From an uncultured Bacilli bacterium (GTDB taxonomy: Bacteria; Bacillota_I; Bacilli_A; RF39; UBA660), in NCBI GenBank assembly GCA_947632265.1, contig CANROP010000001.1, forward strand, positions 1-45,390: a stretch of DNA of 45,390 nt. The letters are read 5' to 3'. Below the pieces are notes generated by a model. That model saw only the letters and a program-made list of their open reading frames with translations, did not search any database and had not been told where the DNA came from. Both the position numbers and the translations under genes were made by a program. Shown piece by piece: positions 3,362 through 35,596 of this stretch. Within the stretch, counting starts at the first letter, position 1. Every line of letters begins with the position of its first letter.

Positions 3362-5905
3362 TTATACTTCAAAATCATCTAAAAAATCATCTATTGTCAT
3401 CATTCTCTTATCTATATTATCTAAAGAAATATTATCTTTTTTTACCTCTTCTATCTCTTCTTTAGGTTTATTAACTATATTATTAGGATTTATAAGTTCA
3501 CATTCTATAAATGCATCAACTATATTTCTCTTAGATAAATTAGAACCTATAGAATATCTATCTAATATTGGTAAATCAGTTATCTTAATAAATTCTAAAT
3601 CTTCTTTTAATTTTAATCCTAATGTATGTTTATTATCTACTACAAAAGATTTTAATATATAGTATGGATTAGTCTTAACATCTCTTACTATTTGTACACC
3701 TTTACGTGCTCTTGATATTCTTTCAAATTCTAATAATTTTACTCTCTTACCAGTATTTTTAGTAGTAATAATAGAAATATATTCTTCACTATCTATTACA
3801 TTTCCACTAGAGACAAAATCATTTTTAAGACTTATTCCTTTTACTCCACTTGCCCTACTTCCCAATATAGGTACTTCATTTATATCATATCTAAGTCCAA
3901 ATCCATTATGAGTTGTTATAAATACATCATTGCCTTTTTTACTTGATATACTTACAACTACATCATCATCTTTTAATTTCATATATGGCATTGGCTTAGT
4001 ATAACGACTAGCTTTTAAATCACTTATTAATGTACGTTTAATCATACCATTCTTTGTAAATACAGTAATATAGTTATCAGTATCAAAATTAACAACAGGT
4101 ATACTATATATTATATTTTCTTCTGGATTAATTTTTATTATATTGCTTATATGTTTACCTAAGTCTTTCCATTTCATATCTGGAATCTCATGTACAGGTA
4201 CAAATAAATAATTACCTATATCTGTAAACATGAGTACTGTATCCATTGTATTTAATTCATATATACCTATTATATAATCTTGATCTTTTAATCCAGTATT
4301 AGTATCTGTTGATGAATAACTTCTCTTTGATACTCTTTTTACATAACCATCTTTAGTTATTACTACTATACAATCTTCTTTAGGTATCATAGCAGATACA
4401 TCTATTTTAATCTCTGTTATTTCATCTTTTATCTCTGTCTTTCTAGGTGTTGCATACTCATCTTTTATATATTTTAACTCTGTCTTCATTACACGTTTTA
4501 ACTTTTCTTCATCAGAAAGTATTCCCTCTAGTATTTGTATTGCTTTTAATAATTTAGCATATTCTTCTTTTAATACATCTACATCTGTATTAGTTAATCT
4601 ATATAGTTGTAAATTAACTATAGCTTCTGCTTGAGCATTTGAAAAATCATAATTTTTTACTAAATTTTCTATAGCATCCGTTTTATTTTTACTAGATCTA
4701 ATAGTCTTTATAACTTCATCTAATATATCTATTGCTTTTATTAAACCTAGTACTATATGCATACGAGCTTTAGCGTGCTCTAAATCAAATTTAGTTCTTC
4801 TAGTTATAACTTCTTTTTGAAATTCGATATAAGCATCTAATATATCAGTTATACCTACTACCATAGGTCTTCTATTTACTATAGCTACCATGTTATATGT
4901 ATAACTTATTTGAAGTTCAGTATTTTTAAATAAATAGTTAAGTATATTATCTACATTTGCATCTTTTTTTAAGTCTATTGCAATTCTAACTTTCTCTTCC
5001 CTATCTGATTCATCTCTTACTTCTTGTATACCATCTATTTTTTTATCGTATATTATATCAGATATTTTTTTAACTAATAAAGCTTTATTAACTTCAAAAG
5101 GTATCTCATGAACTATTATTTGTTTTTTATTTTTATCTTCTACTATTTCATATTTAGATCTTATTACAATTTTACCTCTACCAGTACTTAGAGCATCTTC
5201 TATTTCTTTTTTACCTTCTACAATAGCTCCTGTTGGAAAGTCTGGACCTTTTACTATATCTAGTATTGTTTCTAATCTACAATTTGGACTATCTATTCTC
5301 TTTATTGTAGCATCTATTACTTCTCCTAGATTATGTGGAGGTATTTCAGTTGCATATCCAGCACTTATACCTTTTGATCCATTTACAAGTAAATTTGGAT
5401 ATTTTGCTGGAAGTACTATTGGTTCATATAAAGTATCATCAAAGTTTGGAGCCCATTCTATAGTATCTTTATCTATATCTTTTAAAAGTTCTCCACTTAT
5501 TTTAGATAGACGGGCTTCTGTATAACGCATGGCAGCTGCCCCATCTCCATCCATAGAACCATTATTACCATGCATATCAATATAACATTCGTTTTGTTTC
5601 CACCACTGGCTCATATGAACCATAGCCTCATATATACTTGAATCTCCATGAGGGTGATAGTGACCCATTACATTTCCAACAGCTGTCGCTGATTTTTTAT
5701 GTGCTTTATCTATTGTATTTTTATCTCTAAACATAGCATAAAGTATTCTTCTTTGAACAGGTTTTAATCCATCTCTTACATCCGGTATAGCACGGTTTTG
5801 TATTATATCTTTAGCGTACTGACCGAATCTATCCCCCATTATCTCTTCAAGGGTATAATCATATATTTTCCCTAATACGTTCTCTGTCTCTTCTTGCTTT
5901 TTCAT
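3362..5905 (-). CDS. parC: DNA topoisomerase IV subunit A
   Basis: RAIPDVRDGLKPVQRRILYAM has Q rather than the H seen in GyrA. The active-site region AAMRYTEARL is present, no GyrA-box (QRRGGKG) is seen, and the partner parE lies upstream. The start is set at MKKQEETEN (ATG 5903-5905), 9 nt after GGAGG; the ORF-track start at 5926 is probably too long. Confidence 0.88.
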   Translation of the reverse strand: MKKQEETENVLGKIYDYTLEEIMGDRFGQYAKDIIQNRAIPDVRDGLKPVQRRILYAMFRDKNTIDKAHKKSATAVGNVMGHYHPHGDSSIYEAMVHMSQWWKQNECYIDMHGNNGSMDGDGAAAMRYTEARLSKISGELLKDIDKDTIEWAPNFDDTLYEPIVLPAKYPNLLVNGSKGISAGYATEIPPHNLGEVIDATIKRIDSPNCRLETILDIVKGPDFPTGAIVEGKKEIEDALSTGRGKIVIRSKYEIVEDKNKKQIIVHEIPFEVNKALLVKKISDIIYDKKIDGIQEVRDESDREEKVRIAIDLKKDANVDNILNYLFKNTELQISYTYNMVAIVNRRPMVVGITDILDAYIEFQKEVITRRTKFDLEHAKARMHIVLGLIKAIDILDEVIKTIRSSKNKTDAIENLVKNYDFSNAQAEAIVNLQLYRLTNTDVDVLKEEYAKLLKAIQILEGILSDEEKLKRVMKTELKYIKDEYATPRKTEIKDEITEIKIDVSAMIPKEDCIVVITKDGYVKRVSKRSYSSTDTNTGLKDQDYIIGIYELNTMDTVLMFTDIGNYLFVPVHEIPDMKWKDLGKHISNIIKINPEENIIYSIPVVNFDTDNYITVFTKNGMIKRTLISDLKASRYTKPMPYMKLKDDDVVVSISSKKGNDVFITTHNGFGLRYDINEVPILGSRASGVKGISLKNDFVSSGNVIDSEEYISIITTKNTGKRVKLLEFERISRARKGVQIVRDVKTNPYYILKSFVVDNKHTLGLKLKEDLEFIKITDLPILDRYSIGSNLSKRNIVDAFIECELINPNNIVNKPKEEIEEVKKDNISLDNIDKRMMTIDDFLDDFEV

Positions 5906-5997
5906 AACTACTCGCCTCCATTTCATAACTACCTAAATAGATATGAAAATATTTTTTATAAATAAATCTAAAATTCAAAAATAATTTCATTATCAAA

Positions 5998-10095: not shown

Positions 10096-11013
10096 TTATT
10101 CTACATTTATTACTCTTTTTTTAGTAGAAGTATTACCACTTGGATCTTTTGCAGAATATTCTACTACATATTTATTAGAGATATTTATATTAAATGAATC
10201 ATCTTCTTTAATAGAAATATCACACTTCCCACTATTATCAGTACAAGTGACTCCTTCCATTAAATCAAAATTAGTATCACCCAAACTTACAGTAGAACTT
10301 TCTGGAACATTAATAATAGGAAGAGAATTATCTGTTACTATTACACTTCTAACTACAACATTAGAATTTCCAAAATCATCTACAACAGTATAATATATAT
10401 AATATATTCCAGCAATACTTGTATCTACTATATCTACACTATTATCATCTTTAATTATAGTAATTATAACTCTACTTGTTAAATCTACTCCATTACTTGA
10501 TGTTGCAGTATATTTTTGATCTTCAAATACACTATTTAAATCTATCTCAGTTACATAATTACCTTTTGAATCCTGTGGAAGTCCAGTAAGTATTATACTA
10601 GGCTTTTCGCTAGTAGATTCAGTATCTTCTACCTTATATAAATAATCTCCATATTTTTTAGAATTTGTAGGTTTATTTTTATAGCTTGAACCCACATTAG
10701 ATATACTTATAACTAAGTCATTAGAAAATGGCTCTCTAGTTTTAGGATTGATTAAATTTGAATCTAACAATGACTCACTTTTCAATAAAGCAAGTGTTAC
10801 ATAAATTTTACTATCATCATCTGGTAATTTAGATGGATTTTTTAAAGACCAATCATATGCAGCAGATAAAATGCTATCGATCTGTTTTTCATAAGTAACA
10901 TTCTTACTATTATCTATAACTTTATTTACACTTGGATATACAATCATAAATATTATTAATAATAGAACAAAAACAGCAAGTAATTCTGCTAAGGTAAAAC
11001 CTTTGTTATTCAT
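10096..11013 (-). CDS. Prepilin-type N-terminal cleavage/methylation domain protein with C-terminal Ig-like domains
   Basis: MNNKGFTLAELLAVFVLLLII is the class III signal (G/FTLxE plus a hydrophobic helix). The C-terminal half is a beta-rich repeat resembling bacterial Ig-like domains. The start is set at ATG 11011-11013, 5 nt after GAGGTG; the track start at 11025 is a TTG. Confidence 0.7.
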   Translation of the reverse strand: MNNKGFTLAELLAVFVLLLIIFMIVYPSVNKVIDNSKNVTYEKQIDSILSAAYDWSLKNPSKLPDDDSKIYVTLALLKSESLLDSNLINPKTREPFSNDLVISISNVGSSYKNKPTNSKKYGDYLYKVEDTESTSEKPSIILTGLPQDSKGNYVTEIDLNSVFEDQKYTATSSNGVDLTSRVIITIIKDDNSVDIVDTSIAGIYYIYYTVVDDFGNSNVVVRSVIVTDNSLPIINVPESSTVSLGDTNFDLMEGVTCTDNSGKCDISIKEDDSFNINISNKYVVEYSAKDPSGNTSTKKRVINVE

Positions 11014-11021
11014 AATACACC

Positions 11022-11567
11022 TCAATTTCTTTTAAATATGCTTAAGACACGTGCAAAAACATATAATATCTCATTACTCTTACTCATTGCAAGACCTTTT
11101 TCTATAGCTTTACCACCTATAGTTATAGATGATATTATACTCATTGTAATTAATGTTACAACAAGACTATTAAAATTAAAATTTTCTGTTATTTTTAATG
11201 CTATAACCGCACCTGTAGATCCTGATATAATTCCACATATATCTCCAACTACATCGTTACAAAAACTAGATACTTTATCTGCATTCTTTTTTAATCTAAC
11301 TGCCATCTTCGCACCCTTAACACTTCTAGCTGACATCGAATGGAATACAGCTTCATCTGCGGATGCTACAGCAACCCCTATCATATCAAATAAAACTCCT
11401 ATAAAGATAAATAAAAGTGTAAGAAGTATACCAATTATAATGTTTACGTTTGGTATTGCTGTTTCAGATATAAATGTAAAAGCAATCGATATTAAGAAAG
11501 CTAAAAGTACAAGTTTTCCTATCCATACATAATCAACTAACTTTTTCTTTTTAGGATTCTTTTTCAT
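11022..11567 (-). CDS. Multi-pass membrane protein, possibly DUF21/CNNM-like
   Basis: It has four predicted hydrophobic helices. The segment ASADEAVFHSMSARSVKGAKMAVRLKKNADKVSSFCNDVVGDI loosely resembles the DUF21 pattern. This is a low-confidence family call. Confidence 0.4.
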   Translation of the reverse strand: MKKNPKKKKLVDYVWIGKLVLLAFLISIAFTFISETAIPNVNIIIGILLTLLFIFIGVLFDMIGVAVASADEAVFHSMSARSVKGAKMAVRLKKNADKVSSFCNDVVGDICGIISGSTGAVIALKITENFNFNSLVVTLITMSIISSITIGGKAIEKGLAMSKSNEILYVFARVLSIFKRN

Positions 11568-11576
11568 TTTATCAAC

Positions 11577-12083
11577 CTATCTTATATAATCAAGTAATCC
11601 TGAATCAATACTAGAATCTTGATTATTTTCTTCAACATCTGTTTCATCAAGTGTATTTTTATCATTTGGATCTTCTTTAATACTATCATTATTTTTATTT
11701 ACATTTTGCTCATTTTGACTTATTATTTCATCTTTTTTATTTAATAAACCTAATACAAAAAATACTGATAAAATAATAACTATTAAATATAATACTAGAA
11801 CAATTATATATTCCTTTTTAATTTTCTTTTCTTTTTCTACAAAGTCATCTGCCATATCATTATTTGTTTCGTCTTTTTTTAAATCTTCTAATACATCATC
11901 TTCTTTAGATGTTTCATCTACTAATTTTTTAGTATCTTCAACTTCATTATTATCACTAGTTTCTTCTTCATTTATTTCTTCTAATTCATTAGTTGTGTTA
12001 AGTGTTTCATCTACTAGTTCTTCACTATTTTCAACTTCATTATTATCACTAGTTTCTTCTTTTATTAATTCTTCATCATTCAT
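11577..12083 (-). CDS. Highly acidic repeat protein with a single transmembrane helix
   Basis: The start is set at MNDEELIKEE (ATG 12081-12083, RBS AGGTGA), because the longer track start at 12155 would overlap a terminator hairpin. A 30-nt exact internal repeat (11937-11966 = 12031-12060) encodes ETSDNNEVE twice. The TM segment is IIVLVLYLIVIILSVFFVLGLL. Confidence 0.5.
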   Translation of the reverse strand: MNDEELIKEETSDNNEVENSEELVDETLNTTNELEEINEEETSDNNEVEDTKKLVDETSKEDDVLEDLKKDETNNDMADDFVEKEKKIKKEYIIVLVLYLIVIILSVFFVLGLLNKKDEIISQNEQNVNKNNDSIKEDPNDKNTLDETDVEENNQDSSIDSGLLDYIR

Positions 12084-12125
12084 ACTATCACCTATAGTAA
12101 GTATAACATAAAAAAAATATTTAGT

Positions 12126-12152
12126 AAACAAAAAAAGGCAATTTGCCTTTCT
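12126..12152 (-). terminator. Rho-independent terminator closing the large ncRNA candidate
   Basis: The minus strand reads AAAGGC-AAAUU-GCCUUU followed by UUUUG (seven U in a row counting the stem), i.e. aaaggcaaattgcctttttttg. Confidence 0.5.
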
Positions 12153-12742
12153 CACACTTCATTATGGCGTTAATACAGTTAACTTTACGTCATAGGTCAA
12201 GTCGGATTTCCCTAAAACTTACTTACCGTTACCAATAAGCGGTTCCCCTTTAAAAGTTTCAGTATATTGTCGCCAAATACACTACTTGATTGCCACTTAG
12301 TACGCACTGCAATCCCATATTAACAACACTCTAGGAGATTTCCTCACCACTATTTACTATTAATTCTTTTTTGCAAATAATATTTCAAATTGCACTCCTC
12401 TAGGTTCTAGCTAAAAACTTATAGAAATGTTTATTCAATTATCCCAATTATTCACTCAAGACAAGCTACGCTACCCGCAACTTTCATCGCTTGGTAGGTT
12501 TAATCTCACTTCGTATTCAGTCCGTCAGTAAATTACGTATAGGCTAAACACAATAGTAAGTCTCCACGAATGGTGGGTCATTTGCATATGCCATTATGGA
12601 TGCCCAACACTCTCATTTCCAGCACTCACCCCAATCTGGGCGAAAGAAGCAAGCACCAAAAGTTTCACAGATATGCTCTTTAGCGGATTTTTAGCCCCGC
12701 CTTCATAATAAATATAATGACTAGAATAATGTGCCATCAACG
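12126..12742 (-). ncRNA. Candidate large structured non-coding RNA (about 615 nt), class unknown
   Basis: The ORF track lists no ORF (shortest listed is 62 aa) in any frame. G+C is much higher than in the flanks. A consensus promoter lies immediately upstream and a terminator at the 3' end. There are several stable hairpins, including a GAAA-capped one (12471-12497). See findings. Confidence 0.6.
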
Positions 12743-12748
12743 ATTACC

Positions 12749-12777
12749 ATTATAGCAAATTTACACTTTTTTGTCAA
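12749..12777 (-). promoter_or_regulatory. Exact consensus sigma-A promoter
   Basis: On the minus strand TTGACA (12772-12777), a 17-nt spacer, then TATAAT (12749-12754). Confidence 0.7.
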
Positions 12778-12862
12778 ATTGGCTATTTTTTTAAATTTTC
12801 TTATGAAAATCTATTTACTTTTATTATATTATATGCACTTCTTTAATAAATAATAATATATT

Positions 12863-13351
12863 TTAACTCAAGTATGAATCTATATCTTGTTTTAATAATT
12901 TAACAAAATTTTCATTATTACTTTTATATTTTTTTGGTTTAAAATCTTTAACTTTTTTTAATAATTCTTCTAATTTATCAAAATCTTCTAAATTTAAAAT
13001 ATAACCATTATTAGAAAAATTTTCTATTATCTGTAATTGATGATCATTAGTGTGTTCTCCATATTTTTTTAATCGTGCAGCAGCTATTACTTTTTTATTA
13101 TGTTTTAATCCAGATAGTATTGACCCTACTCCACCATGTGTAATTAATAAATCACAACTGCTAATTAATTTATCAAATTCATCCATAGGTATTAAATTAA
13201 AAATCTCCATATTATTTGATTTAAAATCACTAGAAAATCCTGCTTGTACTATTACTTTATCTTTTATTACACCTTTATCTATAAGTTTTTGAACTGATTC
13301 TAACAATCTATAAAATTTTTTATCTTGTGTACCTAATGTAACTAAAATCAT
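12863..13351 (-). CDS. PssE/Cps14G-type glycosyltransferase subunit (Alg13-like, GT28 C-terminal domain)
   Basis: Motifs MILVTLGTQ and ITHGGVGS are present and the protein is about 160 aa. The start ATG overlaps the upstream stop (TAATG) and a GGGGGTGG RBS precedes it. It pairs with an Alg14-like gene. Confidence 0.8.
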   Translation of the reverse strand: MILVTLGTQDKKFYRLLESVQKLIDKGVIKDKVIVQAGFSSDFKSNNMEIFNLIPMDEFDKLISSCDLLITHGGVGSILSGLKHNKKVIAAARLKKYGEHTNDHQLQIIENFSNNGYILNLEDFDKLEELLKKVKDFKPKKYKSNNENFVKLLKQDIDSYLS

Positions 13352-13818
13352 TAGTAAATCCACCCCCTATAGATTGCATTTGGATAAAGTTCTAACATAC
13401 TTTCCCACTGTACAATAAATTTATCAGCTATTCTATAAACTAATTTACCTGATAATGTTTTAGTTTTGTTATTAGCAAACGTTTCAATAAATATTATCTT
13501 ACTTCTAAATAATTTTCCTATATAACACATAGGAACAGCAGTATGTGTTCCTGTAGTTACAATTACTTTTGGTCTTATTTTTAAATATAATATTAAAGAT
13601 TTAAAACTATTATAAGCAAACTTAAATATATATGAAAATTTATGATCTTTTGTCCCATAAACTAAATAGTTTACATGATTAAATTTATTTTTTAATCCAA
13701 TAGTAGAATCTGTTTTTTCAGTTATCAAATAACTATTGTATTCTTTAAATAAAGGTTCTAATTGTAGTAGTTCACTTAAATGTCCACCTGTAGATGCGAT
13801 AAAAAGAACTTTCTTCAT
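13351..13818 (-). CDS. PssD/Cps14F-type glycosyltransferase subunit (Alg14-like)
   Basis: The N-terminus KKVLFIASTGGHLSELLQL is present and the protein is about 155 aa. It lies adjacent to the Alg13-like partner. Confidence 0.8.
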   Translation of the reverse strand: MKKVLFIASTGGHLSELLQLEPLFKEYNSYLITEKTDSTIGLKNKFNHVNYLVYGTKDHKFSYIFKFAYNSFKSLILYLKIRPKVIVTTGTHTAVPMCYIGKLFRSKIIFIETFANNKTKTLSGKLVYRIADKFIVQWESMLELYPNAIYRGWIY

Positions 13819-35152: not shown

Positions 35153-35596
35153 TTATAGATTACTTAATCTTTCTTTTATAGTTTTACTTACAAATCCCAT
35201 ATCTGCTTTACCTTTTAGTTTAGGTGTTACATATCCCATTAATTTACCCATATCAGATTGATTAGTTGGATTTACAGTACTAAAAGCTTCATCGATAACT
35301 TTTAATACATCATCTATACTTAACTGTTCTGGCATATATCTATTTAAAATTTCAATTTCTTTATTTGTTTGTTCGATTAAGTCAGTTCTACCTGCTTTTT
35401 CAAAATCTAAAATAGATTCTTTTCTAGTTTTAATTTGTTTACTTAAAACTCCAATAACATCCTCATCATTAAGTTCACTTTTTTTATTTATTTCTTCTAG
35501 TTGCATTGCTCCCTTAACCATTCTAAGTACACTTAATGTTTCTTTATCTTGACTTTTCATAGCCGTAATTAAATCATTTAATATTTTCTCTCTCAT
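35153..35596 (-). CDS. GatB/YqeY domain protein
   Basis: LNDLITAMKSQDK...LSVLRMVKGA...EIEILNRYMPEQLS, about 147 aa, adjacent to rpsU. Confidence 0.85.
   Translation of the reverse strand: MREKILNDLITAMKSQDKETLSVLRMVKGAMQLEEINKKSELNDEDVIGVLSKQIKTRKESILDFEKAGRTDLIEQTNKEIEILNRYMPEQLSIDDVLKVIDEAFSTVNPTNQSDMGKLMGYVTPKLKGKADMGFVSKTIKERLSNL

Follow-up and report, generated by a model that had tools for sequence, protein, structure and literature searches.

We analysed the minus strand of a 45,390-nucleotide (nt) stretch of contig CANROP010000001.1 from an uncultured Bacilli bacterium, referred to below as the window. Between a polysaccharide-synthesis locus and a gene for a small acidic membrane protein, this strand carries a region of about 0.6 kb that appears to encode no protein. 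The longest open reading frame (ORF) overlapping positions 12148-12753 has 48 amino acids (aa), and the short ORFs there span 31 to 48 aa. The G+C content of the element is 37.6% against 24.4% for the window, with 31 G+C of 60 nt in 12601-12660 and 10 of 60 nt in 12781-12840. Both the absence of longer ORFs and these counts had been reported in an earlier reading of this DNA, the first-pass annotation, and both hold. Downstream on the same strand lie the acidic-protein gene and then a gene for OLE-associated protein A, oapA. We assign a probability of about 0.97 to the interpretation that the RNA predicted from 12131-12743 of the minus strand is the product of an ole gene, a full-length OLE (ornate, large, extremophilic) RNA of a low-G+C, uncultured member of the gut Bacilli.

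The whole window was scanned with Rfam 15 at the gathering-score threshold. The OLE model, RF01071, matched positions 12148-12753 of the minus strand with 381.5 bits against a gathering score of 50 (E = 1.1e-108); the match covered model positions 1-616 of 616 and was not truncated. No further Rfam family reached its gathering score in the OLE region, and the ROOL, GOLLD and raiA-motif RNAs, which are similar in size and complexity and also form homo-oligomers, differed in having no match at gathering score anywhere in the window. Canonical pairs were present in the window RNA at 141 of the 153 ungapped RF01071 consensus pairs, and 85% of the upper-case, highly conserved model positions (211/249) were identical. 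The sole sizeable insertion relative to the model, of 12 nt, falls in the loop of a P7-like hairpin. OLE RNA has reportedly been known since the work of Puerta-Fernandez et al. in 2006. A 2024 survey by Fernando and Breaker found it in about 2,800 Bacillota genomes, gut lineages included (PMC11332333). The OLE RNA described here is thus a member of an already known family, identified by a routine Rfam scan, and is not a new RNA class.

The first-pass annotation had also proposed that the region is bounded on the minus strand by an exact consensus promoter and a hairpin followed by a U-run, and both were recovered in our analysis. The sigma-70 promoter of ole (12777-12749) consists of a -35 element, TTGACA (12777-12772), a 17-nt spacer and a -10 element, TATAAT (12754-12749), with an extended -10 TG at 12757-12756 (TGcTATAAT, 12757-12749). 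In a scan of 10900-13500 it was the sole 12/12 match to the consensus, and the predicted transcription start lies at about 12744-12741. The intrinsic terminator (12153-12130) has a 7-bp stem, AAAGGCA/UGCCUUU, with an AAU loop at 12150-12134, followed by seven U residues to 12130. No second terminator-like site was found beside it in the same scan, where shuffled sequences lead one to expect 0.4. Together, the promoter and terminator predict that the minus strand is transcribed from about 12743 to about 12131, giving an RNA of about 610 nt.

Relatives were represented by 80 loci from representative genomes (L001-L080), collected with the window OapA as the probe. Hairpins followed by a T-run occurred at a matching offset in L002-L006 and L020. 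Most of the gut-Bacilli OLE loci examined had a near-consensus promoter, TTGACA-16/17-TGnTATAAT (at least 10/12, mostly with the TG), 20 to 28 nt upstream of a conserved AUUCUAGUC. One example of this near-perfect promoter is at L004:5610-5640, and some Clostridia loci likewise have a near-perfect extended -10 promoter at a fixed distance upstream of OLE. Its conservation implies that OLE commonly forms a separate, strongly transcribed unit in these lineages, in contrast to Halalkalibacterium halodurans, where it is cut out of a long operon transcript. A dedicated promoter also agrees with published accounts of OLE RNA as highly abundant.

Conservation of the structure was analysed in an alignment of 41 OLE sequences, comprising the window and 40 gut-Bacilli-type loci. 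The Rfam consensus structure was projected onto the alignment via the window row, and pairs were then counted. Standard pairs occupied 88.1% of the cells, compared with 36.8-45.9% when the 3' partners were slid by 1 to 3 columns. Changes on both sides were found in 114 of 151 pairs, against 72.8 +/- 3.2 in shuffles, and none of 500 shuffles reached any of the five pairing measures. The OLE family is marked by a large set of near-invariant nucleotides, at about 25% of positions, and 132 columns of the alignment were invariant. The candidate nucleotides of the long-range P3 helix, which belongs to the current OLE model but is not annotated in Rfam, are among the invariant ones, so that covariation carries no information on this helix. 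The compensatory substitutions in relatives imply purifying selection on the structure of OLE. The first-pass annotation had named codon-like periodicity and a lack of covariation among homologues as outcomes that would speak against a structured RNA. Per-column variability across the OLE homologues showed no 3-nt periodicity (Kruskal P = 0.74), compared with P = 6e-26 for the oapA control, and covariation was evident in the 41 homologues.

The individual parts of the RNA could be related to the published architecture; the P-numbering used here is our own mapping onto the published numbering, with L4 assigned from its loop sequence. A hairpin mapped to P4/L4, GGCGGG-GCUAAAAAU-CCGCU (12701-12682), carries an A-rich loop that is conserved in the alignment. 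L4 forms the A-A dimer bridge B1 in OLE structures determined by cryo-electron microscopy (cryo-EM) (PMC12286853, PMC12265935). Two adjacent multipart hairpins (12662-12568), mapped to P5/P5.1 and P6/P6.1, which form the kissing-loop bridge, have the loops CGCCCAG and AAUGGCAU; both loops are invariant in the alignment, and the corresponding helices 2 to 4 covary. These are followed by a long P7-like hairpin of 56 nt (12560-12505), which contains the 12-nt loop insertion and shows double changes in 14 of 17 pairs (helix 5), and by a P8-like hairpin of 27 nt with a GAAA tetraloop (12497-12471), which is 99.3% paired with double changes in 9 of 11 pairs (helix 6). The long P9 arm of 99 nt (12462-12364) ends in an apical palindrome, UAGCUA, at the homodimer kissing-loop site (bridge B3). 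The core of this L9.3 loop is AGCU in the window and 14 relatives, GGCC in 24 and GUAC in two (40 of the 41 sequences), and it is self-complementary wherever the loop is retained. Switching of L9.3 between GGCC, GAUC and AGCU has been reported, with AGCU a listed alternative, and covariation of the adjacent nucleotides supports an intermolecular kissing loop (Kretsch et al. 2025, PMC12286853). The sequence elements of all three dimer bridges, namely the A-rich L4, the L5/L6 loops and the palindromic L9.3, are therefore present in the window RNA.

The 3' domain, the P12-P15 region (12325-12168), contributes helices 14 to 19 to the covariation count. It includes a P13-like hairpin at 12282-12262, GUGUA-U-UUG-GCGA-CAA-UAUAC, in which a U is bulged and the tetraloop is GCGA; another GNRA hairpin, with a GUAA tetraloop, lies within 12261-12213. 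A GNRA hairpin with a bulged U and a second GNRA hairpin are the determinants of OLE for OapB binding (PMC7936274), and the window RNA sequence has both. The intact P13 GNRA hairpin predicts that the genome encodes OapB, a KOW/SBB-fold protein, and OapC, an L7Ae/YbxF-like protein; a tblastn search of the 45-kb window found no OapC.

Several pairings had been proposed in the first-pass annotation, and they met with different outcomes. The GNRA-capped hairpin at 12497-12471 is real, being the OLE consensus helix that we mapped to P8, and UGGGCAU...AUGACCCA is part of the OLE consensus hairpin that bears the conserved AAUGGCAU loop. For the proposed GAUUGC/GCAAUC hairpin (12314-12309 with 12293-12288), the complementarity is conserved, with 98.8% pairing in the 41 homologues, some G-C to A-U and G-U changes and four double changes at one pair. 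However, it lies outside the Rfam consensus, with whose helices it would be pseudoknotted and partly overlap; possible roles for it are a tertiary contact or a pairing that replaces the consensus one. Two long-range complementarities and a CCAC/GUGG hairpin are present in the sequence but found no support as structure. Across the 41 homologues, GAGACUUACU/AGUAAGUUUU was 54% paired and the L4/L9 loops were 61% paired, in neither case in excess of shuffles; the nucleotides concerned serve the P7-like helix, the 3'-domain helices and the L4 and L9 loops instead. The CCAC/GUGG hairpin was 72% paired, lacked covariation support and conflicts with a covarying consensus helix. A 10-nt direct repeat, UGAAACUUUU, does occur at both of the sites named, but these belong to two different conserved OLE segments and we assign the repeat no significance.

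Three types of OLE have been described: the full-length type; variant 1, common in TANB77, in which P7-P9 are short and P13 often has no OapB site; and variant 2, which lacks P7 and P8 and is common in RF39 (PMC11332333). The predicted window RNA is of the full-length type and is neither variant 1 nor variant 2, because the P7-like hairpin, the P8-like hairpin, the P9 arm and both GNRA hairpins are present. Variant 2 is ruled out by the presence and covariation of the P7-like and P8-like hairpins, and variant 1 by the lengths of P7 (56 nt), P8 (27 nt) and the P9 arm (99 nt) and by retention of the P13 GNRA hairpin. The window shares with the two variants a setting in uncultured low-G+C gut bacteria with apparently small genomes. 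Its likeness to full-length OLE extends to a size of about 600 nt, all consensus helices but one small hairpin, the conserved nucleotides, the bridge elements, the P13-like GNRA hairpin with its bulge, oapA downstream on the same strand and a probable Bacillota host. It differs in having the AGCU core in L9.3 and not the commoner GGCC, its own consensus promoter and terminator, and a small membrane-protein gene before oapA.

The 181-aa ORF at 11567-11022 of the minus strand is, by published criteria applied to its predicted product, oapA. OapA proteins are small (about 180 to 200 aa) and have four transmembrane (TM) helices. A simple Kyte-Doolittle scan of the window product predicted four TM segments (aa 16-34, 41-59, 106-124 and 132-150), and the product contains a DxxxD motif, FCN-D105-VVG-D109-ICG, in which both aspartates are invariant in 22 homologues. 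This motif is distinctive of OapA and absent from true CNNM domains, CNNM being the "next-closest cluster" to OapA (Fernando and Breaker, PMC11332333). The CNNM model PF01595 scored 26.8 bits against the window product, below the cut-off of 28.4, and 16 of the 22 homologues matched it at E <= 0.01. CNNM domains carry a characteristic conserved proline that OapA lacks. The product aligned with the OapA of Supplementary Table 4 of Kretsch et al. 2025 (PMC12286853) with 37% identity over 169 aa (E = 6e-30). A scan of it against NCBIfam returned no family. Its best match among PDB sequences, CorB 7M1U, was weak and nonsignificant (E = 0.24); 7M1U is reportedly the top structural match for OapA. 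A profile built from the 22 homologues gave no match to PDB sequences at E <= 1, and no OapA chain was matched. In its four TM segments, DxxxD motif, basic N terminus and near-threshold CNNM match, the window protein resembles the CNNM/CorB/MpfA domain and OapA. In contrast to MpfA, it has no CBS or CorC domains, as expected for OapA.

The start of oapA lies 580 nt past the Rfam 3' end of OLE on the same strand, and a single small gene intervenes. The first-pass annotation had set OLE aside on the basis of gene context, although oapA lies 0.6 kb downstream behind the acidic-protein gene that it had noted. This ground for excluding OLE was mistaken, because oapA is present; the isoprenoid genes are indeed absent. 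With the 381.5-bit Rfam match, the outcome that the annotation itself had said would make the class a known one, the proposal of an RNA of unknown class falls, and what stands is a predicted discrete, strongly promoted and structured minus-strand RNA of about 610 nt.

We then considered how ole and oapA are linked in the 80 loci. In 74 of them, nhmmer with the window RNA found an OLE homologue upstream of the oapA homologue and in the same orientation. All eight of the closest loci gave a cmscan match to OLE, of 374 to 432 bits and near full length in seven; the match in L002 scored 159.8 bits, the RNA there being truncated by the contig end. The closest loci (54-73% OapA identity) derive from gut metagenome-assembled genomes (rabbit, mouse, human, sheep and goat) of uncultured Bacilli, "Tenericutes" or "Mollicutes", none of the same species as the window; more distant loci belong to Oscillospiraceae and other Clostridia. 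Hosts of OLE are Bacillota, typically anaerobes or extremophiles, with which the closest loci are consistent, and an RF39-like lineage is plausible for the window. The gap between OLE and oapA is 8 to 135 nt in most loci and 0.3 to 5.8 kb in the window and its nearest relatives, L001-L006 and L020. In these nearest relatives with a wide gap, a terminator-like hairpin follows OLE, except in L001. The cargo between ole and oapA in the window sub-clade is variable and includes large membrane proteins of 400 to 730 aa. No OLE was found in the 6.4 to 10 kb available upstream of oapA in L009, L010 and L014. The cargo and the loci in which OLE was not seen upstream suggest that the ole-oapA linkage is loosening in this lineage.

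A number of features depart from the textbook OLE case. Twelve consensus pairs are noncanonical in the window RNA. A 12-nt hairpin, Rfam model positions 424-435, is absent, and the 40 aligned relatives are all just as short in this segment. Between ole and oapA stand a terminator and an additional gene, so the two are not immediately adjacent; oapA is the most common immediate downstream neighbour of ole, and in contrast to OapA elsewhere the window oapA is coupled, apparently translationally, to the upstream acidic membrane-protein gene and does not directly follow ole. Finally, ole lies outside the classic isoprenoid/nusB/folD/recN cluster, and the usual polycistronic surroundings of full-length OLE (isoprenoid genes, nusB, folD, xseA/B, dxs and recN) are not found around it; a place in this cluster of isoprenoid, translation and DNA-repair genes is typical of OLE without being a defining trait. 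Nothing counts against membership in the OLE family.

Other explanations of the locus were weighed. The RNA could be a cis-acting leader or attenuator of the acidic-protein/oapA operon rather than a trans-acting RNA, since oapA follows it on the same strand and the short ole terminator, with only 3 G-C pairs in the 7-bp stem and a folding energy of -6.6 kcal/mol, could leak and allow read-through. We regard this as very improbable. In L001-L006 and L020 the 0.3 to 5.8 kb between ole and oapA is filled by unrelated genes, and the three loci in which no OLE was found in the 6.4 to 10 kb available upstream of oapA indicate that cis linkage is not required. Moreover, OLE of H. halodurans is an abundant RNA that binds the OapA protein (literature summarised in PMC12265935). 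Equally improbable is that this OLE is a nonfunctional relic left in a reduced genome. In its favour, a shortened OLE and the lack of OapB and OapC are frequent among gut lineages whose genomes are reduced (PMC11332333). However, the copy is full length, with P7, P8 and both GNRA hairpins, its promoter is perfect, and the compensatory substitutions in relatives point to selection on its structure.

Less probable still is that the RNA represents a new class, large and structured but unrelated to any known family. Only the unusual context speaks for it, that is, the polysaccharide locus, the gyrase-like neighbours and the gene and terminator between the RNA and oapA; it is opposed by the full-length OLE match (E about 1e-108), the retention of 85% of the conserved OLE nucleotides and the oapA gene downstream. 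A decayed protein gene or small-peptide region, its G+C enrichment left over from former coding, can be given as little credence, since the short ORFs that might suggest it begin with GTG, TTG or ATG at no conserved position, no frame is conserved in the alignment, variability lacks the periodicity that is strong in oapA, and compensatory changes occur in 114 of the 151 pairs.

The gene that separates ole from oapA encodes a small, very acidic single-pass membrane protein of 168 aa (12083-11580, minus strand; 52 D+E residues) with a predicted TM segment at aa 93-111. Its stop codon precedes the oapA start by 9 nt; in some loci the two genes overlap. A phmmer search of the 80 loci found homologues solely just upstream of oapA in nine closely related loci (L004:9619-9963, L020:9781-10005, L003:9731-9979, L006:9608-9988, L010:5957-6415, L002:1697-2071, L009:6009-6416, L005:9829-10014 and L014:9779-9952). 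The homologues share a conserved TM core, F.DI.KE.K..YIIVIILYIIVIIL.VLLVLGLK.QKD.I, and have variable low-complexity tails that are acidic or Asn rich. The window copy is extended at its N terminus by about 75 aa of acidic sequence that contains an EETSDNNEVE repeat. The gene is apparently clade specific and apparently translationally coupled to oapA, and its product is the sole element at this locus that might be new. One tentative scenario, which we consider unlikely but not negligible, is that the OLE system has been rearranged in this gut-Bacilli sub-clade. In this scenario ole, a transcription unit of its own with a consensus promoter and a terminator, would be separable from oapA by 0.3 to 5.8 kb of variable cargo, and oapA would always be directly preceded by the gene for the acidic protein, which would perhaps be a lineage-specific subunit of the OLE-OapA complex, for example one replacing roles of OapB or OapC in reduced genomes.

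A mechanism for the window RNA can be proposed by analogy with published work on H. halodurans and with Clostridium cryo-EM structures. In the folded RNA, P3-P9 would make up the 5' domain and P10-P15 the 3' domain, and a homodimer would form via the A-rich L4, contacts of the L5/L6 loops and a kissing loop at the palindromic L9.3. Dimers of the four-helix membrane protein OapA would bind the RNA and hold it at, or possibly across, the cell membrane; in a cryo-EM-based model, P3 spans the bilayer (PMC12265935). The resulting ribonucleoprotein may help the cell to withstand short-chain alcohols, cold, excess Mg2+ and poor carbon sources, to all of which the OLE complex is said to promote tolerance in H. 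halodurans.

As a discovery the locus carries little weight, OLE being long known and represented in Rfam. The case is of use as a calibration point, in which a reading of the letters alone correctly recognised a large structured RNA but was misled by the gene context it expected. Its local details may interest OLE specialists, as regards both additional protein partners and the minimal gene set in gut bacteria with reduced genomes. The details in question are a full-length OLE in a gut-Bacilli lineage of 24% G+C, the dedicated and conserved promoter, the decoupling of ole from oapA and the clade-specific acidic protein in the oapA operon.

The wider surroundings of the locus are as follows. 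Upstream of ole lie genes for Alg13/Alg14-like and other glycosyltransferases and a UDP-GlcNAc 2-epimerase, within a long polysaccharide-synthesis locus; downstream of oapA are genes for a prepilin-like protein and gyrase-like subunits. The prepilin-type gene (11025-10096, minus strand) overlaps the end of oapA by 4 nt, and its product combines an N-terminal methylation motif, GFTLAEL, with a bacterial immunoglobulin-like surface domain at the C terminus. The ribosomal protein gene rpsU (bS21; 35826-35671, minus strand) is located about 23 kb from ole, beside yqeY (35153-35596). Although bS21 is reportedly a component of the OLE ribonucleoprotein in H. halodurans, the presence of rpsU says nothing on the OLE complex, because bS21 is a universal ribosomal protein.

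Two further observations were made elsewhere in the window. Two neighbouring minus-strand genes at 32483-29092 code for proteins with a cohesin and a dockerin domain, respectively, and each of these proteins also has cadherin-like beta-sandwich domains; such a cellulosome-style cohesin-dockerin pair is unexpected in a gut Bacilli genome of 24% G+C. In addition, a skipping-rope motif, RF02924, which is unrelated to OLE, was detected at 3277-3174 of the minus strand with 44.3 bits against a gathering score of 36.7. It contains a 21-nt insertion and is flanked by a gene for gyrase/topoisomerase IV subunit A (3362-5926) and a gene for an AAA_21 ATPase (1204-2370).

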